DNA of 64,000 nt from Amphiscolops sp. MND2022 (taxonomy: Eukaryota), in NCBI GenBank assembly GCA_964187785.1, contig OZ076409.1, positions 72,914,001 through 72,978,000 of the forward strand, read 5' to 3'. This document shows, in pieces, positions 1 through 64,000 of this stretch (positions are counted from its first letter, which is position 1; each line of letters opens with the position of its first letter). Under the pieces are notes generated by a model that saw only the letters and a program-made list of their open reading frames with translations, was not told where the DNA came from and did not search any database. A program made the position numbers and the translations under genes.

Positions 1-270
1 CGCAAAAAGCACCGAACTACGGCCCTTACCTTCCCGAGCTACGCAGTATAAGGATTACATATTGGTTCCGACATTTTCATAGAGTTAAATCTTGGTAATC
101 TGTCTGGATATGCAGAAAAACCAGCACGTGCTTTTTTATACCAAGTTGCTTACAACGACAATTATTTTATATCAACGCCCCCATATTTATCAACGCCCCC
201 CGTCCGTGGGCATGCCGAGGCATGCCCTTCGACGACGTATACCAAGATATGTTCGAGCGCGTTAGCCTAG
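1..270 (+). repeat. U0, partial S-c unit (3' end only)
   Basis: Tail matches U9/U33/U37; 20-mer at 208-227, CTAG 267-270. Confidence 0.9.
208..227. promoter_or_regulatory. 20-mer GGGCATGCCGAGGCATGCCC: palindrome and candidate p53/p63/p73-family response element (representative of 40 copies)
   Basis: Decamers GGGCATGCCG + AGGCATGCCC, zero spacer, 19/20 match to (RRRCWWGYYY)x2; starts 55-75 nt upstream of every junction except those ending U2 and U34. Function inferred. Confidence 0.5.
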
Positions 271-748
271 GTGCCGGGATTTCTATTCGTTCAAGTAAGT
301 TGCGCGTGTGGGTAGGGCCCCTGGCGCGCTCTTGTGTTTGGGGGTTTCCTACTTCTAAATCACGTTCAGATTTCCGGGATCTCGTAAACTATCCATACGA
401 TTTGGCTGAAATTTGGCACACAGCCCCGTTGGAACATTCTAAGAACAAATCCCTACTGACGTTTTGCCCGCTAAACATTTTTTGTTGGTCAAAAATGCGA
501 TTTTCCGACAAAATTTTTGACTTTTTTTCATTTTACAGTCTATTTCTCGCCACAGGGTCTTGCTAGCTACCCTAAACCCTGCTAATTATAATTTGCAAAC
601 TGTCTCAGGAATGCGGTGTGAAAATTTCAGGTCAATCGGACTTAAACTCAGCGAGTTAGAGCAATTTTTTAGGTGCTTTTTTTGACATTTTTTGCATTTG
701 CCGATTTATCTCTGCCGTTTTTTGCCCAGATTTTTTTGAGACACTCTC

Positions 749-854
749 CTAAAGGCCTCCCCTGGCCGGTTTACCTCCCAGAGAAACCATTTGGCCCTAA
801 ATACGGAGTTTCAGCGTTCTAGCATTCGCGGGCGAAAAGTTGTGGGACTTAGAA
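749..854 (+). repeat. ~105-bp conserved core of all S-class units (representative)
   Basis: CTAAAGGCCTCCCCTGGCCG...AAACCATTTGGCCCTAAATACGGAGTTTCAGCGTTC...GGGCGAAAAGTTGTGGGACTTAGAA, nearly invariant across otherwise divergent S families. Confidence 0.85.
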
Positions 855-1227
855 TAAATTTTTGGAAACGCAAAATGTGTAAAGTCAACTTCAGGCCTCC
901 CAAAGTCAAAGAACTTCCACACAACTAGGATTGCAAGTGGATGCATGTGGAAAGTACTGGGATAGACGAGAAAAATGAGCTATAGAACAACTCTGTAGCT
1001 CAACCTGACGTTGACTAATGATGTTTTGAATGTGTGCTTGCTAAGGGGTCCCAAATTGAAAATTTTTAAAGAAAGTTAATATCGTCAAAAATTCATCGGA
1101 AAGCCTGCAATATACAGTAGAGCGTGTTCAATTGTAGCTGAATAATGCATCAACACCGTTCAAGGTCTTTTAAGTCAGTTTCAAAATTTTTGACACTGTA
1201 ATCTTCATCCGAGAGCACAAAACAGTT

Positions 1228-1270
1228 GAGTACATTCCATCTCCCTTTCGGGGGAGATGAGAATGTACTC
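1228..1270 (+). other. Hairpin A, bulged inverted repeat of S-class units (representative)
   Basis: GAGTACATTC-CATCTCCC / GGGAGATG-A-GAATGTACTC, one unpaired A; about 255-270 nt upstream of the unit end. Confidence 0.85.
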
Positions 1271-1534
1271 GCTAAAGAACATGTACTACAGCCAATTTTT
1301 GTTTTTATGCGAGGTCATTCTATGCTATTGCACACGAACACTTTAGTTTTGACAAACATATGTCTTTACATGCTGAATCTTACCTTACCTTTACTTTACG
1401 TTTTTGTACATACTACTACAACAACTCACCCCTAACGTCAACGTCCCATACTTTAAATCAACGCCCACCGTCCGTGGGCATGCCGAGGCATGCCCTTCGA
1501 CGACGTATGCCCTCTCAAACGCGGTAGCCGCTAG

Positions 1535-2808
1535 GTGCCGATCCCCTTTGGGATGCCTTAGTTTCGAGGGCGGTGTAGGGCCCCCTGCCCGAGTCTAGTA
1601 TAAACAACGTAAGGCGATTTTAACAGTGAGGTATCGATTTTCTAAACGAGCCATACGATTTGGCTGAAATTTTGCATACGGCTTCCTATAACAATCCTAA
1701 GAACTAATCCCTACTGGCGTTTTGCCCGGAAAAATCAAAAAGTGGGTCAAAATCTTAGTTTTTTGGTCAAAAAATGGCGTTTTTTTGGAAAAAAATTTTT
1801 TAAGAGCCAATATCTCGCTCCACAGGCCCCGGATCAAAAAGTGTACAATTGTTCGCGTGCTAGGCACTTCATGAACTGTCCGTAGACAAATTTTCGTCCA
1901 GATCGGATAAAAATTGACTGAGTAATAGAAAACTTTGAAAGTGATTTTGACGACATTTTTCGAAAACCTAGTCTATCTCTGCCGTTTTTTGCCCAGATTT
2001 TTTTCCAGGACCTCTCGTAAAGGCCTCCCCTGGCCGGTTTACCTCCCAGAAAAACCATTTGGCCCTTTTGCCGCAGTTTCAGCGTTCCAGGATTCCCCGG
2101 GTAAAAGATAAATGACTTAGAATTTTTTCAAAAATTTTTCAAAATTTTTTTTTTCAACTTCAGGCCTCCCAAAGTCAAGAAACTTCCATACAACTAGTAT
2201 TGCAAGTGAATGCATGTGGAAAGTGCTCGAATAGACGAGAAAAATGAGCTATTATAAACCTCTGTAGCTCAACCTGACGTTGACTTATGACAATTTTAGT
2301 GTGAGCTTGCTATATGGTAAAAAAATTCAAAAATTGAAAATCGAAGTTAAGTCTCATCCAAAACTCATCGGAATACGTTCAATCCATCCCAAAGCGGTTT
2401 ATTTCCAGCTATAGAGTGCAGCAACACCGTTCAAGGTCATTTGACCTATTTCAATAGGTTTTGACTCTGTCTTATCCATCCGATAGTTCGAAACAGTTGA
2501 GTACATTCCATCTCCCCTCCGTGGGAGATGGTAATGTACTCGCAAAAAGTCAAGGTCCTACCACCCTATTCTACCCGGAGTGGTGCTAGCAATGCAGTAG
2601 CGTGAGCCCCAGGTTGTTTGCAGTAGCCTTTACGTATGTTGTGACTATGTATTACAATTCTAACTCTGTTACTAAACAATAAAAATTGTTTCAATCTCAA
2701 ATTTTTTTTTCAACTTTAGTATGTCACCAATAAACATATATCCATCTTTCCTACTACAACCACCCTACCACCCGGCCCCTTGTCCACTGTTCAACCGTTC
2801 ACGTCTAG
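1535..2808 (+). repeat. U2, short unit, family S-b, lacks the 20-mer (1274 bp)
   Basis: Hairpin A 2499-2541; ends TTCACGTCTAG; near-identical to U34. Confidence 0.9.
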
Positions 2809-4083
2809 GTGCCGGTGTATTTTTACACAATGGGGGATGTTGCGCGTGTGGGGAGGGTCCCTGACGCGCTTCCGTGGTTTCGGGTCTTCTAACCTATGAT
2901 AGCGTGACACCTGACTTCGATCTCGTAAACTAGCCGTACGATTTGGCTGAAATTTGGCACACGTACCCCCCTCGACACGGTGAAGATGATTTCCTACTGA
3001 CGTTTTTCCCGCTAAACATTTTTTGTTGACCAAAATAACGGTTTTTGGGGTAAAATTTTGAATTTTTTTTAAATTTCATCTTATATCTCGCCACGGGTTT
3101 ACGCTAGCGCTTCCAAACCTTGCTGACGAAACCTTGCAAACTGTCTCAGGAATGCGGTGTGAAATTTTCAGCTCAATCGGACTCAAACTCGAGGAGATAT
3201 AGCGTTTTTCCGGAGCGGGGGGGTTTCATTTTTCTAACGGTCCAGCTTAACTTTGCCATTTTTTCGAAAATGTACTCGCCTAAAGGCCTCCCCTGGCCGG
3301 TTTGATTCCCAGCAAAACCATTTGGCCCTAAATACGGAGTTTCAGCGTTCCAGCATTCCCGGGCGAAAAGTTGTGGGACTTAGAAAAGTTCAAAAATTTT
3401 CAAAAAAATTTTTTTCCGTTATTTGGGCCCCCAAAGTGGGGGAAAAGACCCCCCAACCAGAAAAGCAAGTGAATGCATGTGGAAAGCCCTTGTTTAGACG
3501 AGAAAAATGCCGTTTAGAACGTCTTTTTATCTTAACTTGACATTGACTTTTGTCGTTTTGAAGGTGACCGTTAGATACGGAAAATTGATGTTTTGAGTAT
3601 TTATACCATCTGAAAGCCATTGAGATACAACATGTTTTGCTCAAAACGTGTTTCATTGCAGTTTCGCTGTCCATTATCACCCTTTGGTGTCTTTTCACGT
3701 AATTTTCGTTTCTATAATAACAATTTTTTTGTGTATTTATTCATTTTTTTCTCATCAAATAACTTGAAACAGTTGAGTACATTCCATCTCCCTTCCCGGG
3801 GGAGATGAGAATGTACTCGCTAAAGGTCAGGAACTACGGTCTATATCTTCCACAACACAAAAGGGATTGCAAATGGTTTCAGTTTGTTGCAGAAAACTTC
3901 TTTTTGCCCTCTGTGACTCGACAAAATGAACGTTTCTTACTTACTTTGAAACTCAGCATACCACAACTCATCTCTAACGTCAGCGCCCCCCTACTTGCAT
4001 CAACGCCCACCGTCCGTGGGCATGCCGAGGCATGCCCTTCGACGACGTATACCAAGATATACCTGGAGCGCGGTAGCCGCTAG
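2809..4083 (+). repeat. U3, short unit, family S-c, tail type c1 (1275 bp)
   Basis: Hairpin A 3775-3818, 20-mer 4018-4037. Confidence 0.9.
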
Positions 4084-5349
4084 GTGGCCGTGTCTTTTCG
4101 ACGTGCTTTTGCATCGAGGAGTGGGTAGGGCCCCGCGACGACCTAGAAGAATTGGATGCTCACCGAAACGTGCAGAATTCTACGAGATCTCATAGTTTGA
4201 GCCATACGATTTTGCTGAAATTTGGCATGTGGCCTGGAATTGGTGAGTAGGTAAAACGTGTAGGAGGTGATTTTTCCCAAATTCCACTGTGAGACGAGAT
4301 ATGGGCAAATAACGGTCCCAAAAATGGCAAAAATGCACTTTTTTCAACTTTGTCAGCCCATATCTCGTTCCCAGGTGCCCGGAGCGGGACGCGTTAAGCT
4401 GATTATAAACTCTAGGGTGTTGAGGCTGTACGGTGAACTTGGGCCCGTTCCGATCCGACTTGTAGTCTTGGAGAAATAACGGTATTTTTGGGGAACCTTT
4501 TCTAACGGTCCAGCTTATCTTTGCCATTTTTTCGAAAATGTACTCGCCTAAAGGCCTCCCCCTGGCCGAATTTACTCCCAGCAAAACCATTTGGCCCTAA
4601 ATACGGAGTTTCAGCGTTCCAGCATTCCCGGGCGAAAAGTTGTGGGACTTGGAAAATTTTCAAAAATTTTCAAAAAATTTTTTTTTCGTTTTCCGGGCCC
4701 CCAATGAAGGGGAAACGACCCCCCAACCAGTATTTTGAGTGAATTCATGTGGAAAGCCCTTGTTTTGACGAGAAAAATACCGTTTAGAACATCTTATCTT
4801 GACTCAACGTTGACTTATGACGTTTTGAATGTGATGTAAGGATGTAGGAGGCATGTGATAAGTTGATGTTTTGAGTCTTTATCTCATATGAAAGCGGTTG
4901 AGATGCAAGCTGTCCTGCTCAAAACGTCTTTCGTTGTAATTTTCCAGTGCACCAATACCCTTTGGTGTCATATAAACATACTTTTTGTCGATATATTAAC
5001 AATTTTAATGTATTTATTCCAATTTTTATTATCTTATAACTCAAAACAGTTGAGTACATTTCATCTCCCTTTCGGGGGAGATGAGAATGTACTCGCTAAA
5101 GACCTAGCGCCATGACCAAAAGTTTGAAACCCACGTTTTTTATCTTCTTACAGACTTGTTTTTGTATTTTTTCGGAATTTTTTAAAAATTAATATACTTG
5201 AAATACATTACTTGACTTTACTACTACAACCCACCTCCAACGACAACGCCCCCCTGCTTGCATCAACGCCCACCGTCCGTGGGCATGCCGAGGCATGCCC
5301 TTCGACGACGTATGCCAAATGCCCAGTGCCACGCAGTCATTATCGCTAG
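4084..5349 (+). repeat. U4, short unit, family S-d (1266 bp)
   Basis: Hairpin A 5052-5094, 20-mer 5281-5300; near-identical to U24 and U30. Confidence 0.9.
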
Positions 5350-7535
5350 GTGGAGGTTATTTTATAATAATTAAAGTGTTTTTTTCCGGAGTTTGTGGCT
5401 TTGGAAAAAACAAAAGGCGAGAAATTGGGCACTCCGGGCTGAACCGTATACACTCAATATTCGCCCAATATTTATACGATCTCGAAACCCAGCCGTACGA
5501 TTTGGCTGAAAATTTGCATGCGGCTAAAAAATCAGATTCTAAGAACTATTTCCTGCTGACATTTTTTTGAAATTTTTGTGTACGTTTCCCCCCCCCGCCC
5601 CCTAAAGGGGTCAATTTTCCCCAATTTTGCACTTATGAGTCAAATTCTCAAAACTGGTGGATCTGAGCGTATTCCCGGCGGGGACAACTTTTAACGAGCG
5701 CTCCTCAGTAGACCTTTTTGACTTTTTACTTTGGTGGTACGTTCACCCCCCGAGGAGGAAATGGCGTTTTTGTGACTTCCGGTCGAGGCTTTTTTCACCC
5801 AAAAAAAAAAATTAAGCCAATTTTGAGCAGGAAGGAGTGGATTTAAAGTGCCTGTACCCTGCTAAAAATTTGTTGGGCTTGTAGCGATATATCTCATACC
5901 AAGTCTGGTTTTCACCCCCAAACCCCCCTTGGGACCAAAATTCACCCAAACTTTTTTACCTCTGTTTGTAGTTTTTTTGCAAAATGTCGTCATTTCCATG
6001 GGTAAGGAGTTGAATTAGGGGCTCCTAATAGGGTACCAATGTTCAAGTACACTTGCAGTGCAACTGAGTGACCCTTTTGGGGCCTCTCCTGTGTTCGGCA
6101 AGGACCGGAAGTGGTGTAAACCCCCCTTTTTTGACGTTTGTTGACCTTGAGACTCGCGCTTAGATGACGTTTATGTCGCGCAAATCCTACAAACCAGTAT
6201 TAGGATGACATGCTAGCCAACTAGAGAGCACTAAGGGAAACTATACTATACCGGAAGTAACCCCCCGTGACCGGAAGTTGTCATTTTTGACCGGAAATGG
6301 TCCAAAACATAGCGTAAAAGCAGTTTTCATTGCTTTTAAAGTCAACTTATTACTTTTTTCAGTCTGCGCGAGCTTGTCTTCAGATTCGTTTTTGTTGTCC
6401 GTGCACACTACAACAAATTTACATCTGTAGAATTTTTGCTATAATATCGTCGGAGAGAGAAATAACGGGTTTCCGGAATTTTTTTCAAACATGTTTGTCT
6501 ATATCTATCATTTTTACCCAACGTTATTCAACAGTAGAACCACAGGGGTTAGTATCTGCCAAAATATATGCCTAACAAAACCACTCGTCCCATTGGTTGC
6601 AGTTTGAGCGTTCTAGCTTTGCCTGGTCACAAGTTGAGGGACTTCAAAAAGTTTCAAATTTTTTTGGAAATTTTTTTTAAACGTCACGTCTCCCAAAGTT
6701 AAGAATTTTCCACACAACTAGGATTGCAAGAGAATGCACATGGTAAGACCTATAAATGGAGAGAAAAATTCCGTTCAGAACGTCTCTTTATCGTTACGTG
6801 ACGTTAAAAGATGTTGCTTTGAATGTGAATTTGATAATGCGTCGAGAAGTAAAAGAGTGTGAATGGATCCTATGTCTCGACAAATACTCATCGCAATACA
6901 TACGATGAACCCTAATTACCCTCACTTTCAGTTGGCTAGTACATCAGCGTCTTCCAAGGACCGTTTACCTATTTGAAAATTGTCAAAATCATTATTAATA
7001 TCAGTTAGCAAGAAATGTTTGAGTACATTGTCATCTCTCCCCATCGGGTGAGATGAGAATGTTCTTGCTAAAAGTCAAGTACTACGGCCCATTTTTGTTT
7101 TATTGCGACGTTTTCTGTGCCTTAGCACAAGGATACTTTTATGTCATCTCACTTTTGTTATACAATCTGACTTGTTGTTATAAATTTCTCGTCATTACTT
7201 TACCTAAACTTACTACCATGCATCTTTAACGTCAAAGCCAAATTCATTTAGACGCCCACCATTCCGTAGGTATGCCGAGGTATGCCTTTCGAAGACGTAT
7301 GGCAAAACACAAACGGGCAAATGAAAAGGGCTGAAATTCAGAAACAGTCACAAACAATTTTGACTATTTGACCGATGGTAGGTTTTTATATGGAACTTAC
7401 ACATCACTGACATTTCAAAACATTCCAGCTGACGCCCACCCACAAACATCAACGCCCACGGTCCGTGGGCATGCCGAGGCATGCCCTTCGACGACGTATG
7501 GCAAATACCTTTTACGACGTCCCAACTTTCCCTAG
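5350..7535 (+). repeat. U5, composite unit H1 with two successive 3' ends (2186 bp)
   Basis: Degenerate hairpin A 7021-7066, decayed 20-mer 7268-7287, intact 20-mer 7467-7486; paralog of U18. Confidence 0.88.
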
Positions 7536-8806
7536 GTGGCCGCGTCTTTTAGATGGACTTTTAGCCCTGAGGCGCGGGTAGGGTCCTGCGCCGAGCTGGT
7601 GAAAATATACTACGTCCAAATCGCCCGTTCCGGAAACGATCTCAAAACTGGCCCGTACGATTTTCCTGAAAATTTGCATGTGGCCCCCAATTGGCGAGCA
7701 ATGAAAAAGTGTAGGAGGTCGTTTTTCCCAAATTCCACTGTGAGAGGAGATATATGAAAAAAACGGACCCCAAAATGACGAAATTTTCACTTTTTGACCA
7801 AAAATGTGACATTATCTCCTCAGACAAGGCTCGGAGCAAAATTTGTCAGAACCCAAACCTGCAGCAGACTGTTAGAGGACTACGCACAGTAAGTTTGAAG
7901 GAAATCGGATAATCACATGTTGAGAAATTGACGATTTTCCGACAAAATTTTTTGCATTTGCAGTCTATCTCTGCCGTTTTTTGCCCAAAATTTTTTCGAG
8001 ACCCTCTCCTAAAGACCTCCCCTGGCCGGTTTACCTCCCAAAAAAACCATTTGGCCCTAAATACGAAGTTTCAGCGTTTTAGCATTCCCCAGTGAAAAGT
8101 TATGGGACTTAGAACTTTTTCAAAAATTTTCAAAATTTTTCTAAAAAAGTTCAGGCCGCCCAAAGTGAAGAAACTTCCACACAACTAGTATTGCAAGTGA
8201 ATGCATGTGGAAAGCCCTGCACTTGACGAGAAAAATGCCGTTTAGAACGTCTTTTTATCTTGACTTGATGTTGACTTATGATCTTTTGAGTAGCGTATAA
8301 CACGTGATCACAGTAGTGAAAATCCTAATTTTCAATAATTTTCAAACAATAACGCATGAAAAGAACCTGGAAAAGGTTCCGATGGGTCAGTTGGGATGTC
8401 GGAAGCATGTGTACATTCCCGTAGTGTATAGCGGATGTATTTGGGACTTATTAGAAATTGTGATATATTTTATACAAGTCTTTGTTTCTCTTAGAATCTT
8501 ATTCAGTTGAGTACATTCCATCTCCCTCTCAGGGGAGATGTGAATGTACGTTTGCCAAATGCCTTGTAAAGCTCACAATTTTGATGGATTCAAATGACTA
8601 AACAAGTGTGATTTGCGTTTGCCGAACCACTGCGACAAAATATCCTAAATCTATAGCGAGATTGAATGGTTTTTGTCTTTAGTGTTTCTTCTTGTATAGC
8701 CGACTTCCACATCCAAATATCAACGCCCACCGTCCGTGGGCATGCCGAGGCATGCCCTTCGACGACGTATGCCAAATACCATATGCCACGCTGTCATTAT
8801 CGCTAG
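7536..8806 (+). repeat. U6, short unit, family S-e, single copy here (1271 bp)
   Basis: Head hairpin 7571-7592, hairpin A ~8509-8550, 20-mer 8738-8757. Confidence 0.88.
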
Positions 8807-10092
8807 GTGGCCGGAAATTTTTTTTTTCATCAAAATCTTTGCCATTGGGGGAGGGGCCCCGGATGGCCAGTAGTACGGCATAGCTCCCTACGGAATCCAG
8901 GCAGAAAAAACGTGATTTTGGAAACTAGCCGTCAGAATTTGCTCAAATTTTGCATACGGCTTCCTATAACAATCCTAAGAACTAATCCCTACTGGCATTT
9001 TGCCCAAAAAACGCAAAAAGTTGGTCAAAATCTTAGTTTTTTGGTCAAAAAATGGCAATTTTTCGAAAAAAAAATTTTTCAGAGACAATTACTCGTAACT
9101 GGTTCACCCAGCGCAAAAACGCCTAGCTGATTTATTGTTGGGCACTTCATGAGGAGTGCGTATACAAATTTTTGTCCAGATCGGAAAAAAAATGACTAAG
9201 TATTAGCCGGAATTCGGACGCATTTTTTCGCAAATTTTTGAAAACCTAGTCTATCTCTGCCGTTTTTTGCCCAGATTTTTTTCCAGGTCCTCTCCTAAAG
9301 GCCTCCCCTGGCCGGTTTACTTCCCAGAAAAACCATTTGGCCCTAAATACGGAGTTTCAGCGTTCTAGCATTCCCGGGCGAAAAGATGTGGGACTTAGAA
9401 AAAATTCAAAATTTTTCAAAAAAATTTTTTTCGTTTTCCGGCCCCCCAATGAAGGGGAACGACCCCCCAACGAGGATTATTGGTGAATTCACGTGGAAAG
9501 GCCTTGTTTTGTGGAGCAAATTGCCGTTTAGAGCAACTTTTTATCTTAACTTGACGTTGACCTCTGTCGTTTTGAATTTGATATTAGTATGCGTTGAGCA
9601 TGTGAAAAGTTGATGATTTCAGTTGTTCTCTCGTGTTCAAGCCATTGAGATACAAGCGGTAGTGATCAAAATGTGATTTATCGCAATTTGATGGTGCTTT
9701 TGGTGTATTTTGATTCTTTTAAATAAAAAGTTGTTCTTTTTATATTTGGTGTATTGATTCAAATGAACAAGAAACAGTTGAGTACATTTCATCTCCCCCC
9801 TTGTGGGGGAGATGAGGATGTACCCGCTAAATGACACGCACAATGGCCTAATTTTATTTTTATGCGACATTTTCTGGCTTTTGCGCAAGCCCACTAATAT
9901 TTAGACTGGTTTCCTTTTCTTTTACTCCAAAATTTTCCGTACTAACCACCTTACGCACCACCAGCTCAACGTAACATCTGTAACGTCAACGCCACACACT
10001 CTCACTAACGCCCACTGTCCGTGGGCATGCCGAGGCATGCCCTTCGACGACGTATGCCAAATAGCGCCACAGGGCGCAAACTTGTCCGCTAG
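8807..10092 (+). repeat. U7, short unit, family S-f (1286 bp)
   Basis: Hairpin A ~9780-9835, 20-mer 10023-10042; near-identical to U26. Confidence 0.9.
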
Positions 10093-10125
10093 GTGCGGGG
10101 GGGTAACCCCAACTTTTTTCTTGGA

Positions 10126-10149
10126 GGAATCGGGTAGGGTCCTGATTCC
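10126..10149 (+). other. Head hairpin H2 with conserved TAGGG(T/C) loop (representative)
   Basis: GGAATCGGG-TAGGGT-CCTGATTCC; stems covary between families. Confidence 0.8.
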
Positions 10150-11624
10150 GAGTTCAGTGCCGCCAGCTATCGTTAAAAACCCATACCTTTTAAACCCGAT
10201 CTCGGGAACTAACCACGCCCCTTCTTTAATTTTTTGGCCCCCACTCACTTTTTGAGAGTAGATCGCCCCCCACTGGGTTCCAAGTTGGGCAAAAATGGAG
10301 GTCATGGGTAACGGGGACCGTTAAGGGGTAACTCAGGGGGTAAAATTTATTTTTTGCGTCATATCTTTTCCCCCCGTGGATTTAGCGCTTCCGGTCAGCA
10401 GACAAAACCTCATGTACGTGATACGGGGCCTCCGTAGGTCCAAACAAAATTTTTCTATCATGCACCGTTACGGACTTGCCCCCCGGCCCAACCGTTATTT
10501 TACCGGAAATTGCACTTTTTGACCGGGAAGGAGTCGTCTGAGCATGGAGTCGTTTGGTAATGTTTTGTAGTGCATCTGGAGACGTGTTGGGGGACATGTA
10601 GTTTGCCGGCCCCAGTTTACCCCCCGGACGGGAAATGACCGTTATGTGAGTTTTAAAATTACCCCCCTTCAATTTTCCCCGTTATTTCCGGTGTGAAGGA
10701 GTGGGAGTAGCGCGTCGGGTGCCATATATCAAAAGTAGGTTTAGACAAGGACCAACCGGAAACTTGTGGTTTGGGACCCCCTGACCCAACCCGTTAGCCG
10801 TTATAAGGGTGATCGCCTCCTTTTTTTACTCTCAAAACCGGAAAACGGGCATTGAGGGGTAAATATCTCGTGAACGCGTGGAGCAATCGTGTCCATCACT
10901 ACTACAAGGTTTCATACCCATGATATGGTGCCTTCAGGGGGGCAAACAGATTACCGCTATCTATCACCGTTACCGACTTGGCCCCCCAGCCTAACCGCTA
11001 TGTGACCGGAAATTGCACTTTTTGAGCCCAAAGGGTCGATCCTAGCCGGGCAACGTTAGGTAACATATTGTAGTACTCATTGAGACGAGTTGGGGGATAT
11101 AGTTTCAGTCACCCCCCGTTACCCCTTGAGACCGGAAATGACCGTTATGTGAGTAGAATTGCAATTTTTATACCTTTTGAAGGGCATTTAGGTGTGGAAG
11201 GAATGGTAATAGGTGCTTGGACACTATATGATGTAATGGAGGTCGTGAAGAGAGCATTCGGAAATAACCGTTATGTTGACCCCAAAGTCCCCCTGGTACC
11301 GTTAACGACCGGAAATGGCCAAATTTTGTGTTCATAGGGTACAAATGTTTAGTATTTTATGGATAAAAGTACCTGGAAGATGTTTTAAAGGCCTCCAGAA
11401 GTGAACATAGTCATGAAACCTTGTGGGGGGTAACGGTATATAGCACCGTAAGTCCAAACCGTTGGTCACAGAATAGGTTTTTTGGTTTCAAAATGTCTTT
11501 AGGCGTAGTTATGTGGGTTGAATTGTCATAATATCAACTAATACGGACTTTTTTGGGAAATAAAATTTTTTCACATTAGTTTCAGGGACCTACAATGCTT
11601 CAGTCAACATAACCGTAACATTTT

Positions 11625-53267: not shown

Positions 53268-54541
53268 GTGCCGATCCCCTTTGGGATGCCTTAGTTTCGA
53301 GGGCGGGGTAGGGCCCCCTGCCCGAGTCTAGTATAAACAACGTAAGGCGATTTTAACAGTGAGGTATCGATTTTCTAAACGAGCCATACGATTTGGCTGA
53401 AATTTTGCATACGGCTTCCTATAACAATCCTAAGAACTAATCCCTACTGGCGTTTTGCCCGGAAAAATCAAAAAGTGGGTCAAAATCTTAGTTTTTTGGT
53501 CAAAAAATGGCGTTTTTTTGGAAAAAAATTTTTTAAGAGCCAATATCTCGCTCCACAGGCCCCGGATCAAAAAGTGTACAATTGTTCGCGTGCTAGGCAC
53601 TTCATGAACTGTCCGTAGACAAATTTTCGTCCAGATCGGATAAAAATTGACTGAGTAATAGAAAACTTTGAAAGTGATTTTGACGACATTTTTCGAAAAC
53701 CTAGTCTATCTCTGCCGTTTTTTGCCCAGATTTTTTTCCAGGACCTCTCGTAAAGGCCTCCCCTGGCCGGTTTACCTCCCAGAAAAACCATTTGGCCCTT
53801 TTGCCGCAGTTTCAGCGTTCCAGGATTCCCCGGGTAAAAGATAAATGACTTAGAATTTTTTCAAAAATTTTTCAAAATTTTTTTTTTCAACTTCAGGCCT
53901 CCCAAAGTCAAGAAACTTCCATACAACTAGTATTGCAAGTGAATGCATGTGGAAAGTGCTCGAATAGACGAGAAAAATGAGCTATTATAAACCTCTGTAG
54001 CTCAACCTGACGTTGACTTATGACAATTTTAGTGTGAGCTTGCTATATGGTAAAAAAATTCAAAAATTGAAAATCGAAGTTAAGTCTCATCCAAAACTCA
54101 TCGGAATACGTTCAATCCATCCCAAAGCGGTTTATTTCCAGCTATAGAGTGCAGCAACACCGTTCAAGGTCATTTGACCTATTTCAATAGGTTTTGACTC
54201 TGTCTTATCCATCCGATAGTTCGAAACAGTTGAGTACATTCCATCTCCCCTCCGTGGGAGATGGTAATGTACTCGCAAAAAGTCAAGGTCCTACCACCCT
54301 ATTCTACCCGGAGTGGTGCTAGCAATGCAGTAGCGTGAGCCCCAGGTTGTTTGCAGTAGCCTTTACGTATGTTGTGACTATGTATTACAATTCTAACTCT
54401 GTTACTAAACAATAAAAATTGTTTCAATCTCAAATTTTTTTTTCAACTTTAGTATGTCACCAATAAACATATATCCATCTTTCCTACTACAACCACCCTA
54501 CCACCCGGCCCCTTGTCCACTGTTCAACCGTTCACGTCTAG
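53268..54541 (+). repeat. U34, family S-b, lacks the 20-mer (1274 bp)
   Basis: Same length as U2 and almost the same sequence. Confidence 0.92.
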
Positions 54542-55821
54542 GTGCCGGTGTTTTCTTCACTTTTGAGGAAGTTGCGCGTGTGGGTAGGGCCCCTGGCGCG
54601 CTCCGTTGTCCCTGTGTTTACATCTTAGAAAATTTGAGTAAAAAAATGGGATCTCGAAAACTGGCCACACGATTTGGCTGAAATTTTGCATACGGCTCCC
54701 TATGACAGTTGTAAGAACTAATCCCTAGTGGCGTTTTGCCCGGAAAATTTTTTTTGTTGACTTATTCACATTTTTAGGGTCAAAAAATGGCGTTTTTTTG
54801 AAAAATTTTTTTTCAGAGACAATTACTCGAAACTGGTGCACCCAGCGCAGTAACGCCTAGCTGATTTATTGTTGGGCATTTCATGAGGAGTCCGTATACA
54901 AATTTTCGTCCAAATCGGATAAAAAATGATTGAGAAATAACTGAAAATTTGAGGAATTTTTTGGGAAATTTTCGACAACCCAGTCTATCTCTGCCGTTTT
55001 TTGCCCAGATTTTTTTTGAGACACTCTCCTAAAGACCTCCCCTGGCCGGTTTACCTCCCAGCAAAACCATTTGGCCCTAAATACGAAGTTTCAGCGTTCT
55101 AGCATTCCCGGGCGAAAAGTTGTGGGACTTAGAATAAGTTTTTGGAAACGCAAAATGTGTAAAGTCAACTTCAGGCCTCCCAAAGTCAAGGAACTTCCAC
55201 ACAACTAGGATTGCAAGTGGATGCATGTGGAAAGTACTGGGATAGACGAGAAAAATGAGCTATAGAACGACTCTGTAGCTTAACTTGACGTTGACTTATG
55301 ATGTTTTGAATGTGTGCTTGCTAAGGGGTCCGAAATTGAAAATTTGTAAAGAAAATTAATTTCGTCAAAAATTCATCGGAATGCCTGCAATGTACAGTAG
55401 AGCGTGTTCAATTGTAGCTGAGTAATGCATCAACGCCGTTCAAGGTCTTTTAACTCAGTTTCAAAATTTTTTACACTGTATTATCCATCCGAGAGATCGA
55501 AACAGTTGAGTACATTCCATCTCCCTCCCGGGGGAGATGAGAATGTACTCGCTAAAGTCCAGATACCACAGCCCATATTTGTTTCTCTGCAACGCCATCT
55601 ATGCTACTGCACATAACTACTAATCTTAAGACTGAATTTTGCCTTCACTTTGAGTTGACATATGATGAAGGTTTGATCCTTTCACACATCATTATTACCT
55701 GAACAAAACAACCCTAACATCAACGCCCCACACTCACATCAACGCCCACCGTCCGTGGGCATGCCGAGGCATGCCCTTCGACGACGTATACCAAGATATA
55801 CATAAGCGCGGTAGCCGCTAG
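54542..55821 (+). repeat. U35, mosaic short unit with S-a 3' body (1280 bp)
   Basis: 5' body resembles U7, 3' body resembles U1; 20-mer 55757-55776. Confidence 0.88.
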
Positions 55822-58800
55822 GTGCCGGTGTCTTTTTACACAATGGGGGAAGTTGCGCGGTTGGGGAGGGTCCCTGACGCGCTTCCGTGAGATCAGGTTT
55901 TTCAACTAGTGAAATCGACAAAGAAAATTGAGATCTCGTAAACTAGCCATACGATTTGGCTGAAATTTGGCACACGTACCCCCCTCGGCACGGTGAAGAT
56001 GATTCCCTACTGACGTTTTGCTCGCTAAACATTTTTTGTTGACCAAAATAACGGTTTTTGGGGTAAAATTTTCAACTTTTTTTAAATTTCATCTTATATC
56101 TCGGCACGGGTACACGCTAGCGCTTTCAAACCTTGCTGACGAAAGTTTGCAAACTGTCTCAGGAATGCTGTGTGAAATTTTCAGCTCAATCGGACTCAAA
56201 CTCGAGGAGATATAGCGTTTTTCCGGAGCGGGGGGGTTTCATTTTTCTAACGGTCCAGCTTATCTTTGCCATTTTTTCGAAAATGTACTCGTCTAAAGGC
56301 CTCCCCTGGCCGGTTTTATTCCCAGCAAAACCATTTGGCCCTAAATACGGAGTTTCAGCGTTCCAGCATTTCCGGGCGAAAAGTTGTGGGACTTAGAAAA
56401 TTTCAAAAATTTTCATAAAAATTTTATTCCGTTATTTGGGCCCCCAAAGTGGGGGAAAAGACCCCCCAACCAGTAAAGCAAGTGAATGCATGTGCAAAGC
56501 CCTTGTTTGGACGAGAAAAATGCCGTTTAGAACGTCTTTTTATCTTGACTCAACGTTGACTTATGACGTTTTGAAGGTGATGTTTGGAGGTGTAAAGCAA
56601 GTGAATAGTAAACGTTATGAGTATTTATCTGATCTGAAAGCCATTGAGATGCAATATGGTTTGCTCAAAACGTAATTCATTGCAGTTTGGCAATCAATCA
56701 ACACCCTTTGTTGTCGTTTGACATACTTTTTTGTTGTTATAATAAAAAATTTTGTGTATTTATTCATTTTTTTCTCATCAAATAACTTGGAACAGTTGAG
56801 TACATTCCATCCCCCCCTTCCGGGGGAGATGAGAATGTACTCGCAAAAAGCACCGAACTACGGTCCTTACCTTCCCGAGCTACGCAGTATAAGGATTACA
56901 TATTGGTTCCGACATTTTCATAGAGTTATATCTTGGTAATCTGTCTGGATATGCCGAAAAATCAGCACGTGCCTTTTAATACCAAGTTGCTCACAACGAC
57001 AATTATTTTATATCAACGCCCCCATATTTATCAACGCCCCCCGTCCGTGGGCATGCCGAGGCATGCCCTTCGACGACCCGCACCAAAATATGCGTTAGCG
57101 CGGTAGCTGCTAGGTGCCGGGATTTCTATTCGATAAAGTATGTGGCGCGCCTTGGGTAGGGTCCCTTGCGCGCTCTTGGGTATGGTGTTCACCAGCTAGG
57201 AAACAGGGGTCGATTTTTCGGGATCTCCTAAACTAGCCACACGATTTGGCTGAAATTTGGCACACGTACCCCCCTCGGCACGGTGAAGATGATTTCCTAC
57301 TGACGTTTTTCCCGCAAAATTTTTTTTGTTGTCCAAAATAACGGTTTTTGGGGGAAAATTTTGAACTTTTTTTAAATTTCATCTTATATCTCGCCACCGG
57401 TTTACGCTAGCGCTTCAAAACCCTGCTAAAGAAAGCTTGCAAACTGTCTCAGGAATGCGGTGTGAAATTTTCAGCTCAATCGGACTCAAACTCGGGGAGA
57501 TATAGCGTTTTTCCGGAGCGGGGGGGTTTCATTTTTCTAACGGTCCACCTTATCTTTGCCATTTTTTCGAAAATGCACTCGCCTAAAGGCCTCCCCTGGC
57601 CGGTTTTATTCCCAGCAAAACCATTTGGCCCTAAATACGGAGTTTCAGCGTTCCAGCATTCCCGGGCGAAAAGTTGTGGGACTTAGAAAATTTCAAAAAT
57701 TTTCAAAAAATTTTTTTTCCGTTATTTGGGCCCCCAAAGTGGGGGAAAAGACCCCCCAACCAGTAGGGCAAGTGAATGCATGTGCAAAGCCCTTGTTTAG
57801 AGGAGAAAAATGCCGTTTAGAACGTCTTTTTATCTTGGCTCAACGTTGACTTATGACGTTTTGAAGGTGATGTTTGGAGGTGTAAAGCACGTGAATAGTA
57901 AACGTTATGAGTATTTATCTGATCTGAAAGCCATTGAGATGCAATATGGTTTGCTCAAAACGTAATTCATGGCAGTTTGGCAATCAATCAACACCCTTTG
58001 TTGTCGTTTGACATACTTTTTTGTTGTTATAATAAAAAATTTTGTGTATTTATTCATTTTTTTCTCATCAAATAACTTGAAACAGTTGAGTACATTCCAT
58101 CCCCCCCTTCCGGGGGAGATGAGAATGTACTCGCAAAAAGCACCGAACTACGGCCCTTACCTTCCCGAGCTACGCAGTATAAGGATTACATATTGGTTCC
58201 GACATTTTCATAGAGTTAAATCTTGGTAATCTGTCTGGATATGCAGAAAAATCAGCACGTGCCTTTCAATACCAAGTTGCTTACAACGACAATTATTTTA
58301 TATCAACGCCCCCATATTTATCAACGCCCCCCGTCCGTGGGCATGCCGAGGCATGCCCTTCGACGACGTATACCAAGATATGTTCGAGCGCGTTAGCCTA
58401 GGTGCCGGTGTCTTTTTACACAATGGGGGAAGTTGCGCGGTTGGGGAGGGTCCCTGACGCGCTTCCGTGAGATCAGGTTTTTCAACTAGTGAAATCGACA
58501 AAGAAAATTGAGATCTCGTAAACTAGCCATACGATTTGGCTGAAATTTGGCACACGTACCCCCCTCGGCACGGTGAAGATGATTTCCTACTGACGTTTTT
58601 CCCGCTAAACATTTTTTGTTGACCAAAATAACGGTTTTTGGGGTAAAATTTTCAACTTTTTTTAAATTTCATCTTATATCTCGCCACGGGTTTACGCTAG
58701 CGCTTCCAAATCTTGCTGACGAAACCTTGCAAACTGTCTCAGGAATGCTGTGTGAAAATTTCAGCTCAATCGGACTTAAACTCGATGAGATATAGCGTTT

Positions 58801-59692
58801 TTCCGGAGCGGGGGGGTTTCATTTTTCTAACGGTCCAGCTTATCTTTGCCATTTTTTCGAAAATGCACTCGCCTAAAGGCCTCCCCTGGCCGGTTTTATT
58901 CCCAGCAAAACCATTTGGCCCTAAATACGGAGTTTCAGCGTTCCAGCATTCTCGGGCGAAAAGTTGTGGGACTTAGAAAATTTCAAAAATTTTCAAAAAA
59001 TTTTTTTTTCGTTATTTGGGCCCCCAAAGTGGGGGAAAAGACCCCCCAACCAGTAAATCAAGTGAATGCATGTGGAAAGGCCATGTTTAGAGGAGAAAAA
59101 TGCCGTTTAGAACGTCTTTTTATCTTGGCTCAACGTTGACTTATGACGTTTTGAAGGTGATGTTTGGAGGTGTAAAGCAAGTGAATAGTAAACGTTATGA
59201 GTATTTATCTGATCTGAAAGCCATTGAGATGCAATATGGTTTGCTCAAAACGTAATTCATTGCAGTTTGGCAATCAATCAACACCCTTTGTTGTCGTTTG
59301 ACATACTTTTTGGTGTTAAAATAAAAAATTTTGTGTATTTATTCATTTTTTTCTCATCAAATAACTTGGAACAGTTGAGTACATTCCATCCCCCCCTTCC
59401 GGGGGAGATGAGAATGTACTCGCAAAAAGCACCGAACTACGGCCCTTACCTTCCCGAGCTACGCAGTATAAGGATTACATATTGGTTCCGACATTTTCAT
59501 AGAGTTATATCTTGGTAATCTGTCTGGATATGCCGAAAAATCAGCACGTGCCTTTTAATACCAAGTTGCTCACAACGACAATTATTTTATATCAACGCCC
59601 CCATATTTATCAACGCCCCCCGTCCGTGGGCATGCCGAGGCATGCCCTTCGACGACCCGCACCAAAATATGCGTTAGCGCGGTAGCTGCTAG
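55822..59692 (+). repeat. U36-U38, three S-c units; U36 and U38 share head and tail (1292, 1288, 1291 bp)
   Basis: Starts 55822, 57114, 58402; 20-mers 57049, 58339, 59628. Confidence 0.9.
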
Positions 59693-60972
59693 GTGCCGGG
59701 ATTTCTATTCGATAAAGTAAGTTGCGCGGTTGGGTAGGGCCCCGTGAGCGCGCCCGTGTCTGTGTTTTTTGAACCTGAATTTGCGGGTGCCAAAATAGAC
59801 GATCTCCTAAACTATCCATACGATTTGGCTCAAATTTGGCATACGGGTTCCTGAGACAGATATAAGAACTAATTCCTACTGGCGTTTTGCCCGGAAAATT
59901 TTTTTTGTTGCGCAAACTTGAAATTTTTGACAAAAAAATGCGATTTTTTTTGAAAATTTTTTTTTGAGAGGCCATATCTTTTTTCAGGGTGCCCGGAGCG
60001 GAACGCGTTAAACTGATTATAAACTCTACGGTTCATGGGCTGTACGGGGAACCTATTTTTGTTGGAATCCGACTTGTAGATTTTGAGATATATTATCAAA
60101 TTTGGGTGTTTTTTTTCCAATTTTTCGAAAAACCTGTTTTATCTCTGCCGTTTTTTGCCCAGATTTTTTTCTAGACCCTCTCCTAAAGGCCTCCCCTGGC
60201 CGGATTACGTCCCAGCAAAACCATTTGGCCCTAAATACGAAGTTTCAGCGTTCTAGCATTCTCGGGCGAAAAGTTGTGGGACTTAGAAAATTTTTTTTTA
60301 AAACGCAAAATGTGTAAAGTCAACTTCAGGCCTCCCAAAGTCAAGGAACTTCCACACAACTAGGATTGCAAGTGGATGCATGTGGAAAGTGCTTGAATAG
60401 ACGAGGAAAATGAGCTATTTTAAAACTCTGTAGCTTAACCTGACGTTGACTTATGACAATTTTAGTGTGAGCTTGCTATGTGAGAAAAAAGTTCAAAAAT
60501 TGAAAATCGAAGCTAAGTCTCATCCAAAACTCATCGGAATACGTTCAATCCATTCCAAAGCGGTTTACTTCCAGCTATAGACTGCAGCAACACTATTCAA
60601 GACCATTGTACCCCTTTATATTAGTTTTGACATTGTATTATTCATCCGAGAGCACAAAGCAGTTGAGTACATTCCATCTCCCTTTCGGGGGAGATGAGAA
60701 TGTACTCGCTAAAGAACAGGTACTACAGCCAATTTTTGTATTTATGCGAAGCCATTCTATGCTATTGCACATAACAACTATGCTATTGACTTAATTGTGC
60801 CTACACTTTGCTATGACATATGCTAAACGTTTGGTCCTTACAACAACATACACATGACTAACGTCAACACCACATACTGTTACCAACGCCCACCGTCCGT
60901 GGGCATGCCGAGGCATGCCCTTCGACGACGTATGCCGAATACCTTCCAGCGACGCTCGCGCTCCCCGGCTAG
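59693..60972 (+). repeat. U39, mosaic short unit with S-d, S-a and S-b-like blocks (1280 bp)
   Basis: 20-mer 60901-60920. Confidence 0.88.
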
Positions 60973-62259
60973 GTGCCCGGATTTCTATTCATTAAAGTAT
61001 GTTGCGCGTGTGGGTAGGGCCCCGTGGCGCGCTCTTGTGTCCCTGTTCTCATAACTGCAATTTCCGGCAGCATTCTGAGCGATTTTCTAAACTATCCATA
61101 CGATTCGGCTGAAATTTGGCACACGTACCCCCCTCGGCACGGTGAAGATGATTTCCTACTGACGTTTTTCCCGCAAAATTTTTTTTGTTGTCCAAAATAA
61201 CGGTTTTTGGGGTAAAATTTTGAACTTTTTTTAAATTTCATCTTTTATCTCGCCACGGGTTTACGCTAGCGCTTCAAAACCCTGCTAAAGAAAGCTTGCA
61301 AACTGTCTCAGGAATGCGGTGTGAAATTTTCAGCACAATCGGACTTAAACTCGGGGAGATATAGCGTTTTTCCGGAGCGGGGGGGTTTCATTTTTCTAAC
61401 GGTCCAGCTTATCTTAGCCATTTTTTCGAAAATGTACTCGCCTAAAGACCTCCCCTGGCCGGTTTTATTCCCAGCAAAACCATTTGGCCCTAAATACGGA
61501 GTTTCAGCGTTCCAGCATTCCCGGGCGAAAAGTTGTGGGACTTAGAAAATTTCAAAAATTTTCAAAAAAATTTTTTTCCGTTTTCGCCCTCCCCCCCGAG
61601 GGGAAAAGACCCCCCAACCAGTAATTTGAGTGAATTCATGTGGAAAGGCCATGTTTAGAGGAGAAAAATCCCGTTTAAATCGTCTTTTTATCTTTATTCA
61701 ACGTTGACTTATGACGTTTTGAAGGTGATGTTTGGAGGTGTGAAGCACGTGAAAAGTAAACGTTATGAGTATTTATCTGATCTGAAAGCCATTGAGATGA
61801 AACCTGTTTTGCTCAAAACGTAATTCATATCAGTTTGGTAGTCAATCAACACCCTTTGTTGTCATTTGACATCTTTTTTTGTTGATATAAGAAAAAATTT
61901 CGTGTATTTATTCATTTTTTTCTCATCAAATAACTTGAAACAGTTGAGTACATTCCATCCCCCCTTCACGGGGGAGATGAGAATGTACTCGCAAAAAGCC
62001 CCAAACTACGGCCCTTACCTTCCCGAGCTACGCAGTATAAAGATTGCATATTGGTTCCGACATTTTGATAGAGTTATATCTTGGTAATCTGTCTGGATAC
62101 GCAGAAAAACCAGCACGTGCTTTTTTTACCAAGTTGCTTACAACGACATTTATTTTATATCAACGCCCCCATCTTTATCAACGCCCCCCGTCCGTGGGCA
62201 TGCCGAGGCATGCCCTTCGACGACGCGCACCAAAATTTTCACCGAGCGCGTTAGCCTGG
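60973..62259 (+). repeat. U40, family S-c, ends in CTGG (1287 bp)
   Basis: 20-mer 62196-62215; junction reads GCCTGGGTGGCC. Confidence 0.88.
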
Positions 62260-63536
62260 GTGGCCGGAAATTTTTTTTTCAGCAAAATCTTTGCCATTGG
62301 GGGAGGGGCCCCGGATGGCCAGTAGTTCGGCTTGGCTACCTGCAAATTCAGGTACAAAAAAACACGATCTCAAAATTGGCCCGTCAGAATTCGCTCATTT
62401 TTTGCATGCGGCCCTAGAATCAATATATAAGAACAAAGTCCTGCTGACGTTTTGCCGAAAAAACATTTTTTGTTGACCAAAAATAACATTTTTCATGCCA
62501 AAATTACCGTTTTTTCACATTTTTCAACTTTGAGAGCTCATATCTCGTTCCCAGGTGCCCGGAGCGGTTCGCACGTGAACTGCAATATTGCTCAACGTTG
62601 TTAACGGAGTGCGTGGACAAATTTTGGTCCAAATTGGACTTAATCTCGGGGAGATATAAACGGATTTTTGGGGGTTTCCGGGGTAAATTTTTTAACGGTC
62701 CAGCTTATCTTTGCCATTTTTTCGAAAATGTACTCGCCTAAAGGCCTCCCCCTGGCCGAATTTCCTCCCAGCAAAACCATTTGGCCCTAAATACGGAGTT
62801 TCAGCGTTCTAGCATTTCCGGGCGAAAAGTTGTGGGACTTAGAAAAAATTCAAAATTTTTCAAAAATTTTTTTTTCGTTTTCCGGCCCCCCAATGAAGGG
62901 GAACGACCCCCCAACTAGGATTTTTGGTGAATCCATGTGAAAGGGTCTTGTTTAGTGAAGAAAAATGCCGTTTAGAGCGACTTTTTATCTTAACTTGACG
63001 TTGACTTATGCCGTTTCGAATTTGATATTAGTATGTGTTGAGCATGTGAAAAGTTGAATATTTCAGTTGTTCTTTCGTGTTAGCCATTGAGATACAAGCT
63101 GTAGTGATCAAAATGTGATTTTTCGCAGTTTCGTGGTGCTTTTGGTGTATTTTGATTCTTTTGATAAAAAAGTTGTTCTTTATATATTGACAATTTTGGT
63201 GTATTGATTCAAATGAACATGAAACAGTTGAGTACATTTCATCTCCCTCTTGAGGGAGATGAGAATGTACTCGCTAAAGTCCTAGTACTATGGCCCATTT
63301 TTGTTTTTTTCAGACGCAGATACTGCCAACGGATACTTTTTGCTGGTGCAACTTTCCTGTGCACAATGTCTTTAGAAGCTAGAAAACTCTATGTCTCTAG
63401 CTTACTTCTCCTACAAATTCGTCACCGACGTCAACGCCACACACTCTCACTAACGCCCACCGTCTGTGGGCATGCCGAGGCATGCCCTTCGACGACGTAT
63501 GCCAAATAGCGCCACAGGGCGCCCAATTTTGTCTAG
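62260..63536 (+). repeat. U41, S-f-related mosaic unit (1277 bp)
   Basis: Head and tail like U7, internal block like U4; 20-mer 63468-63487. Confidence 0.88.
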
Positions 63537-64000
63537 GTGCCGGGATTTCTATTCGTTCGAGTAAGTGGCGCGTGTGGGTAGGGCCCCTGGCGCGCTCTTG
63601 TGTTTCGGGTTTTCCTACTCCTAAACCGCGTTCAGATTTTCGGGATCTCGTAAACTAGCCATACGATTTGGCTGAAATTTGGCACACGTACCCCCCTCGG
63701 CACGGTGAAGATGATTCCCTACTGACGTTTTGCCCGCTAAACATTTTTTGTTGACCAAAATAACGGTTTTTGGTGGAAAATTTTCAACTTTTTTTAAATT
63801 TCATCTTATATCTCGCCCCAGGTTTACGCTAGCGCTTCAAAACCTTGCTGACGAAACTTCGCAAACTGTCTCAGGAATGCGGTGTGAAATTTTCAGCTCA
63901 ATCGAACTTAAACTCGGGGAGATATAGCGTTTTTCCGGAGCGGGGGGGTTTCATTTTTCTAACGGTTCAGCTTATCTTTGCCATTTTTTCGAAAATGTAC
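63537..64000 (+). repeat. U42, partial S-c unit (5' part)
   Basis: Standard head and S-c body, cut by the window edge. Confidence 0.9.

Follow-up and report, generated by a model that had tools for sequence, protein, structure and literature searches.

Helitrons copy themselves rather than excise. Canonical Helitrons take the outer A^TC edge alone as a normal target (PMC2267711), and Helraiser forms circles with precise CTAG/TC junctions that are cut again on the top strand (PMC5876387), its 3' hairpin serving as a terminator past which read-through is possible (PMC4778049); a caret here marks a break and a slash a joint. The element IS91 inserts beside CTTG, GTTC or GTCC without duplication and has the terminal cleavage site CTCG (PMC13181058). 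Head-to-tail pairs of different Helitrons formed by consecutive insertion have been described in maize (PMC2267711) and arrays of 2-7 Helitron copies in Xenopus (PMC12001565), and the path from a mobile element to a megabase tandem array has been framed as an open question (PMC5932611). Here we examine a 64,000-bp stretch of the 1.07-Gb genome of Amphiscolops sp. MND2022 (contig C1:72,914,001-72,978,000, plus strand), referred to as the window, which lies inside a much larger array of units that are almost certainly non-autonomous Helitron-like elements and that probably accumulated, for the most part, by insertion of single units at existing tail–head junctions.

An initial annotation of the window had described an integron-like array of non-coding units shuffled precisely at a 7-bp core, CTAGGTG. 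The array is real: CTAGGTG occurs 41 times on the plus strand and never on the minus strand, against a Markov expectation of 1.7–3.8, and the variant CTGGGTG at 62256, invisible to a strict 7-mer search, forms a 42nd junction that divides into two what had been taken for a single last unit of 2.56 kb. The 41 complete units measure 1,264–2,191 bp and, as had been claimed, share one orientation (GTG...CTAG) without spacer between them; across the 304 kb of array analysed (described below), the 3' tetramer of the units is CTAG at 205 of 211 junctions and CTGG at 6. All twin pairs that the annotation had named were recovered at identities of 90.3–99.9%: over their full length U2/U34 share 99.9%, U4/U24 99.5%, U4/U30 98.0%, U7/U26 97.9% and U8/U22 97.7%, and U5/U18 share 90.3% over ~2,155 bp, with the final ~30 bp diverging. 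In these pair comparisons identity stops at the junctions, the differing neighbours that had been quoted (GAGG versus CCGG, and CG-CTAG versus GC-CTAG) are correct, and different unit types fall to about 40–65% pairwise identity. An Rfam search of the window matched no family, and its open reading frames (ORFs) of at least 120 amino acids (aa) number only 11, resembling chance frames by inspection without a Pfam scan. Tandem Repeats Finder reported no period on the scale of the array, because the units exceed its 500-bp limit and have diverged.

The ends of the units and their insertion sites define the break. One common tail, CGCGGTAGCMGCTAG, precedes GTG in 1,169 cases and NNH in 34 (about 97% GTG). 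Among the 34 NNH tails, which include two without a unit upstream (L116 and L119, neither counted as an insertion event), the first following base is A in 15, G in 14, T in 5 and C in none, and the second is T in 33. Fifteen insertion events have both flanks visible; the left flank is CTNG in 10 (CTAG in 5, CTTG in 3, CTGG and CTCG in 1 each) and the right flank is DT in 15/15. Two copies of a host repeat are empty, with the sequence CTAG^AT, and the filled copy reads CTAG/GTG...CTAG/AT without duplication; where one unit had entered another, CTTG^GTA had become CTTG/GTG...CTAG/GTA. This nested insertion, together with a GTCC flank, places the break between CTAG and GTG. The break is CTAG^GTG, insertion usually proceeds without target duplication, as had been claimed (empty sites hold a single copy, with one 35-bp exception among the 15 events), and the target is a loose CTNG^DT used in one orientation. 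The 7-mer is the 3' end of one element (CTAG) joined to the 5' end of the next (GTG), with one defined break, and not the crossover overlap that had been suggested. A model in which the core is a duplicated target was tried and discarded, since the CTAG of the element replaces the target CTTG at the right flank and the empty sites hold a single copy.

Because the 7-mer fits the consensus CTNG^DT, each tail–head junction is a perfect target. CTAGGTG is nevertheless found 53,189 times genome-wide, far above the several thousand array junctions estimated from motif copies, and the 7-mer alone therefore cannot explain the ~97% tail–head abutment; an additional factor behind the junction preference may be chromatin, Rep bound to the neighbouring left end, or subsequent amplification combined with selection. 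The absence of mid-unit nesting stated in the annotation holds within the window, but such nesting is present elsewhere in the genome. A young ~2-kb subfamily (L099, L100, L103, L106, L120) accounts for the majority of clean solo insertions, which lie on different contigs; its preference for junctions may be weaker. A solo unit at L017:4614-5872 breaks the ORF of a Gypsy-type retrotransposon.

The annotation had proposed a trans-acting HUH endonuclease, to be sought in a longer cassette with the same ends, and both were found. Elsewhere in the genome lie autonomous units of 12–16 kb with GTG...CTAG ends like those of the window units, which encode a fused Helitron-type HUH Rep and Pif1 helicase (RepHel). 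A 13,675-bp unit in a small array at C1:24.0 Mb, with CTAGGTG at both edges, carries a 2,377-aa ORF in which Pfam recognised Helitron_like_N (PF14214, E 5e-10) and PIF1 (PF05970, 6e-11), both above cut-off, and a C-terminal GIY-YIG domain (4e-4) just under it. A profile of 17 relatives searched against the PDB matched Pif1 helicases, Helraiser (7lcc, 4e-13) and SLX1 nucleases (3e-10). All 17 aligned proteins keep Rep motif 1, the HUH pair, YxxxY and Walker A; most also have an intact GIY-YIG, which about 6 lack or carry in degenerate form. In the genome the Rep region is matched 135 times at 31–100% identity, and about 64 of these matches lie in open frames of at least 2,100 aa (hand counts). 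Each of the 11 autonomous elements examined lies directly against other units; the 8 with both ends visible are GTG...CTAG, and for the remaining 3 the 3' end alone lay within the analysed stretch. Family-A copies on C1, C6 and C8 are 94–99% identical and have different neighbours on both sides.

A downstream ORF of 330–470 aa is kept in 8/8 aligned elements. Its predicted fold (pLDDT 78, best of five models) has RPA/CST OB-fold proteins as top matches at TM-scores of only ~0.2–0.3, and Atlas leads with weak recognition name POT1/CTC1/MEIOB; these leads point to a candidate RPA-like protein. Single-sequence AlphaFold modelling of the Rep region gave pLDDT 31 and the model was not used. Some autonomous families hold, upstream or downstream of RepHel, an ORF of ~210 aa (e.g. 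L020:7362-7979) that is SGNH/GDSL hydrolase-like, as a lead only. Between RepHel and the accessory ORFs, the family-A element contains minisatellites of 77 bp (x5.8, 8232-8673) and 76 bp (x9.3, 9212-9922), whose copy number differs among copies. In one family GIY-YIG occupies a separate overlapping frame (L084:988-1599), and in the L081-L082 copy RepHel is split over three frames.

Comparison with these elements shows the window units to be their derivatives. Units U1, U2, U6, U35 and U39 match up to ~850 bp of the autonomous 5' end at 76–91%, together with 3' blocks; U1 is 87% identical over 808 bp to the 5' end of a 12.0-kb element with a 2349-aa RepHel, and U2 is 88% identical over 830 bp to family A. 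What the 2-kb units share with autonomous elements is chiefly the head motif and the block with the 3' hairpin. The left-end blocks of U1 are a putative Rep-binding origin, and such blocks occur in varying combinations among 1.3-kb units and autonomous elements. The long inverted repeat GAGTACATT...AATGTACTC was not found in 10 autonomous sequences checked; this long hairpin, ~300 bp from the 3' end, has been kept by 1.3-kb units that are otherwise diverged, and may be a signal specific to the parasites. Several deeply diverged families, autonomous and non-autonomous, share these ends and are intermixed in one orientation.

The order of units was analysed in two stretches: 244 kb surrounding the window, with 166 units, and 60 kb of an opposite-strand array 35 Mb distant, with 43 units. 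The units of both were grouped into 89 types at 97%. Among 617 same-type pairs the left neighbour type is shared in 42 and the right in 41 (shuffle mean 17.5). Where 120 upstream bases are identical, the next 100 match across junctions in only 24/294 pairs (0.08); the same measure inside units is 0.43–1.0 at 18 offsets and at least 0.89 at 13, with dips at conserved blocks. Donor switches per base are ~250-fold denser at junctions than inside units (by arithmetic that counts a junction as 7 bp). For 65 1.3-kb units with their best twin in the same array, the nearest twin of at least 98% lies a median of 50 units away (random 49) and within 2 units in 0/65, and 37/43 units of the distant array have a twin of at least 97% in the array around the window. 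Distinct dimers number 179/207. A satellite-type pattern, with neighbours most alike and breaks inside monomers, was not found apart from the run U10-U16, which is a local tandem amplification, by concatemer or unequal exchange.

The following mechanism is proposed. A RepHel-GIY-YIG transposase would mobilise non-autonomous units in trans. By analogy with Helraiser and IS91, Rep would nick the top strand at CTAG^GTG, the Pif1 helicase would peel off one strand, and a stop at the next CTAG would close a circle with a CTAG/GTG junction, which would be strand-transferred into a fresh CTNG^DT nick. The best target would be a 3' end followed by the next 5' end in a Rep-binding left-end context. A chromosomal tail–head junction would be a substrate identical to the circle junction, one insertion would make two sites from one, and this positive feedback would lead to megabase arrays with random unit order. 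Read-through transposition of dimers, unequal exchange and gene conversion would add a second layer, and the GIY-YIG domain might, speculatively, trim or resolve a branched intermediate. The earlier proposal that whole units move and re-integrate at existing junctions is supported by our results; its claim of precise shuffling at the core stands as regards the loss of continuity at junctions and was overstated in view of the internal mosaics, dimers and tandem run.

A number of observations weigh against junction-targeted insertion as the main builder. The tail pattern behind the 97% junction share is blind to NNG ends other than GTG, part of the 1,169 GTG ends were not confirmed as unit heads, and the share could be too high if units were amplified after insertion or solos were selected against. 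Five of the 15 insertion events lack a left CTNG and have other tetramers, including GTCC. One of the 15 (L094, C1:76,236,349) has a 35-bp duplication; this insertion, into a unit head, has a precise 3' joint and the duplication at the 5' joint, which suggests that each joint arises in a step of its own. When the array was split at the core and neighbours were compared, as had been suggested, adjacent pairs recurred in 35 of 107 testable cases against 14±4 by shuffle (at 97%), and at 98.5% in 12 against 1.6. In a copying model 60 of 149 well-explained 1.3-kb units contain at least one internal donor switch (74 scattered switches). These recurrent pairs and internal switches indicate that homologous exchange is also active, and the U10-U16 tandem run and the U23 chimera depart from a single-unit model. 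Family A and U2/U34 lack the 3' hairpin, though their ends are precise CTAG, and the termination signal is therefore not uniform. Several relatives have GIY-YIG missing or degenerate, and the data contained no example of a circle, a new insertion or a polymorphism.

Part of this evidence would be expected of the same elements lacking any junction preference, inserting at any CTNG^DT, with rare seed dimers or rolling-circle concatemers enlarged and scrambled by unequal exchange or conversion and surviving in gene-poor chromatin. Solo insertions at loose targets on many contigs, the 7-unit tandem run, the dimer excess and the common internal mosaics all suit such an origin, and unequal exchange expanding dimers of transposable elements is documented (PMC5932611). 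Unequal exchange, however, keeps neighbours alike and breaks inside units, whereas the twins here are as distant as random, continuity falls to 0.08 at the junctions and near-identical 13.7-kb elements lie on three contigs, each between different units; we consider this origin unlikely. The precise solos in unrelated host DNA attest to true transposition and, with the lack of local bias among twins, render it quite improbable that the order arose mainly in cis, with Rep nicks at chromosomal junctions driving junction-to-junction recombination or template switching, inside one array or between arrays, in place of free circles, even though the same junction-centred breakpoints and co-orientation would be predicted and Helraiser cuts tail–head junctions (PMC5876387) and reads past its 3' end (PMC4778049).

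The integron-like cassette system of the initial annotation, with a tyrosine recombinase and a 7-bp crossover core, would account for co-oriented, spacer-less units reordered around a 7-bp word. The partners nevertheless encode RepHel, Pfam scans of their ORFs detected no tyrosine-recombinase family (unlinked recombinases were not searched for), the targets are degenerate around a single break without flanking inverted binding sites, and the units are without cargo genes, so that a true integron-like system is extremely improbable and 'integron' is an analogy only. We give similarly little credence to the scrambled order being an assembly artefact of a heterogeneous satellite. Repeats assemble poorly, one small array flips orientation across a 200-N gap, and the order is known from the assembly alone, without junction-spanning reads (contigs from one small-share sequencing run gave seven 30-110-bp pieces, 0 crossing a junction); against this, the 304 kb analysed contain 0 N, twin differences of 0.1–3% are sufficient for phasing, and solos, empty sites and intact ORFs at exactly one break cannot stem from mis-joins. 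Insertion of units at existing junctions remains the preferred explanation. A broader proposition seems to us evenly balanced between true and false: that the elements form an unnamed deep lineage whose ends have come to spell their own nick and target site, in which diverged families and gene-less parasites offer each other a self-renewing safe harbour and single-unit insertion has built multi-megabase, strand-polarised domains, and, jointly with this, that the lineage with RepHel, an SLX1-like GIY-YIG and an RPA-like helper gene is widespread in public sequence data.

The relatives of the array lineage were sought with phmmer against 1.84 billion representatives, which gave 688 matches at E≤0.001; of 19 long matches scanned, GIY-YIG was present in 15 and DUF6570 in 0. 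A metagenome scan returned one 6.4-kb contig without usable termini and a viral scan one generic helicase match. Helitron_like_N scores 40 bits in the array lineage against 205 in an HLE1-like control from the same genome, which also contains dispersed HLE1-like and DUF6570-bearing HLE2-like elements (HLE, Helitron-like element). In a quick IQ-TREE analysis of Rep (46 rows, 5 controls, 8/54 rows having been dropped for want of the motif at which the sequences were trimmed), the array lineage and its relatives are split from the controls by a long branch with a Shimodaira–Hasegawa-like approximate likelihood-ratio test (SH-aLRT) value of 99; in a helicase tree (45 rows, 4 controls, 9/54 dropped, so that no HLE1 control was left) the corresponding long branch has a FastTree value of 100. 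Both trees are unrooted, with relatives picked by likeness to the query and no curated references, and a single control, in the Rep tree, is HLE1-like. DUF6570 is absent from P0001 and 19 relatives, and of its 42 genomic matches none falls at those array-clade loci that were compared by eye. Membership of HLE2, suggested by OTU domains in some relatives, was ruled out by the DUF6570 and tree tests; an OTU-like motif in a 2603-aa ORF had no Pfam confirmation.

The lineage is Helitron-like in the broad sense and differs from both HLE1 and HLE2 in ends, target and markers. With HLE1 (Helraiser and the head-to-tail Helitrons of maize and bats) it has in common a RepHel with HUH, two tyrosines and Pif1, a 3' CTAG (CTRR), the lack of target duplication, a subterminal hairpin (in most members here), an RPA-like gene downstream of RepHel and non-autonomous derivatives that share its ends. 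However, HLE1 elements have a 5' TC and an A^T target and a hairpin 11 nt from the end, whereas the array elements have a 5' GTG and a CTNG^DT target, so that internal junctions stay targets, and a hairpin at 55-74 bp; the array lineage also carries a C-terminal GIY-YIG, its Rep stands apart from the one HLE1-like control, and its arrays hold thousands of mixed units. HLE2/Helentron elements likewise have a long RepHel that ends in an additional nuclease at its C-terminus, OTU occurs in relatives P0016, P0019 and P0109, and one Sphagnum HLE2 family has captured a GIY-YIG (PMC11417382). Unlike HLE2, the array lineage lacks DUF6570, the AP endonuclease and the T^T target and is separate from DUF6570-bearing controls in the Rep and helicase trees; no terminal inverted repeats were evident by eye in the end sequences, for which no dedicated scan was made. 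HELIANO distinguishes two HLE groups, plus unclassified HLEs in 19 genomes (PMC11417382), which might include the array lineage.

Third-clade Helitrons of Paramecium, compared by description only, are also outside HLE1 and HLE2, with many diverged families, strict orientation and concentration by target specificity, but their targets are telomeric repeats, which also lie between them, and no mention of GIY was found in the text or 7 supplements searched (PMC13085455). IS91 shares a tetranucleotide target (CTTG, GTTC, GTCC) by its origin end that resembles its own terminal tetramer, the lack of duplication, and circle junction intermediates, which here would be predicted; it is prokaryotic, without a fused helicase or GIY-YIG, and the accessible text describes no megabase mixed arrays (PMC13181058). 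The likeness to IS91 is one of logic, not membership, and the array elements are probably an unnamed Helitron lineage with IS91-like target logic. The SaTar arrays of guayule and rice are linear and non-nested and contain unrelated non-autonomous elements, but consist of DDE Mutator-like elements (MULEs) at microsatellite targets (PMC5907723). Replitrons have a Y1 Rep with HUQ, no helicase and terminal direct repeats (PMC10288648), in contrast to the Y2 HUH and Pif1 found here. Subtelomeric Helitron-like repeats are described in Hydractinia (PMC11934779), and a centromere atlas (10.64898/2026.09.17.752431) belongs to the related literature. The annotation did not recognise the array as a described eukaryotic system; head-to-tail pairs and short arrays of Helitrons are in fact described, and the literature searched gave no precedent for the scale, mixing and target logic. 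Integron cassette arrays consist of co-oriented units reordered at a short core and have an integrase, attC folds and cargo genes; the units studied here have none of these and would be copied in, not excised and reintegrated. Xiong et al. reportedly dealt with centromeric Helitron arrays in 2016. The accessible literature (Repbase, subscription journals and HELIANO supplements aside) describes neither GTG...CTAG elements nor a CTNG^DT target nor mixed Helitron arrays of megabase size, and is likewise silent on the array lineage and its protein architecture.

The array is a readable record: a single genome contains about 64 autonomous copies with long ORFs, non-autonomous units by the thousand, and solos as well as empty sites, and insertion can therefore be tested directly against unequal exchange. 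If our interpretation is true, there would be a transposition-only path from a mobile element to a satellite-scale array. The elements extend Helitron diversity past HLE1/HLE2 and display, in a eukaryote, IS91-like logic in which the end equals the target. Software that looks for TC...CTRR or T^T would overlook GTG...CTAG elements. Should the preference be intrinsic, it could offer a duplication-free, orientation-fixed HUH integrase for 1-16-kb units and targeted, repeatable gene stacking.

Table 1. Positions of units, junctions and sequence blocks within the window
Feature	Position	Strand	Remark
Co-oriented head-to-tail Helitron-like array, interior part	1..64000	+	Inside ~70.46-76.46 Mb region
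41 complete non-autonomous units, GTG...CTAG (one CTGG)	271..63536	+	Without notable protein-coding ORF or Rfam match
Stretch with two target-like sites, uninterrupted	91..112	+	In C8 copy, units inserted at both, without duplication
First junction, CTAG (3' end of preceding unit)^GTG (5' end of U1)	267..273	+	Equals predicted circle junction and predicted optimal target
U1, 1.3-kb class	271..1534	+	Bases 1-808 87% to autonomous 5' end; 3' hairpin block common to both
U1 left-end conserved blocks	311..960	+	GGNAGGGYCC at +41, ACGATT..CTGAAA at ~+127, AAGGCCTCCCC at ~+480, CATGTGGAAAG at ~+675
Long inverted repeat GAGTACATT...AATGTACTC	1227..1281	+	~300 bp from 3' end of 1.3-kb units
Subterminal hairpin GGGCATGCCGAGGCATGCCC, 8-bp stem	1476..1495	+	55-74 bp ahead of final CTAG
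U2, twin of U34	1535..2808	+	Bases 24-853 88% to family-A 5' end; same hairpin-less 3' end type
U4; twins U24 (40437-41705) and U30 (48155-49418)	4084..5349	+	From identity comparison
U5, 2.2-kb type; relative U18 (29180-31370)	5350..7535	+	From identity comparison
U6	7536..8806	+	Both ends 91% to 15.6-kb autonomous element at C1:75.62 Mb
U7; twin U26 (42977-44264)	8807..10092	+	From identity comparison
U8, 2-kb class; twin U22 (36770-38764)	10093..12085	+	From identity comparison
U10-U16, seven 2-kb units, 97-99% identical	13372..27204	+	Local tandem run, exception to scrambled order
U23 chimera	38765..40436	+	2-kb-class head (1-1391, 95% to U21) and 1.3-kb-class tail
U34, 99.9% to U2	53268..54541	+	Both neighbours differ from those of U2
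Variant junction CTGG^GTG	62256..62262	+	Not caught by strict 7-mer

The wider distribution of the units was assessed with a 29-base subterminal motif (GGGCATGCCGAGGCATGCCC and CTTCGACGAC), of which 4,239 exact copies occur genome-wide; the first 100 listed are clustered, with one solo. Probes at 72.3–73.8 Mb of C1 met plus-strand unit DNA at 19/20 places and those at 70.46–75.3 Mb at 7/7 further places, and probes outside 70.45–76.48 Mb met it at 0/5 places. As the probes are positive inside and negative outside, the window sits within some 6 Mb of largely continuous unit DNA in a single orientation, and the Rep matches in C1:70.5-76.5 Mb are 35/35 on the plus strand (hand count). A class of ~1.07-kb units with CTGG or CTTG ends (L023-L026, L028, L090) has no member in the window. 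Intact autonomous copies also cluster at two other places close to contig ends, C2:102.0-103.9 Mb and C3:2.4-3.9 Mb; in both, minus-strand matches are at lower and plus-strand matches at higher coordinates, as divergent blocks around a centre. There is a small chance that the multi-megabase array domains serve as centromeric or subtelomeric chromatin. At C1:72,444,504 a minus-strand unit lies 23 bp inside the head of a plus-strand unit, forming a tail-to-tail junction within the mega-array.

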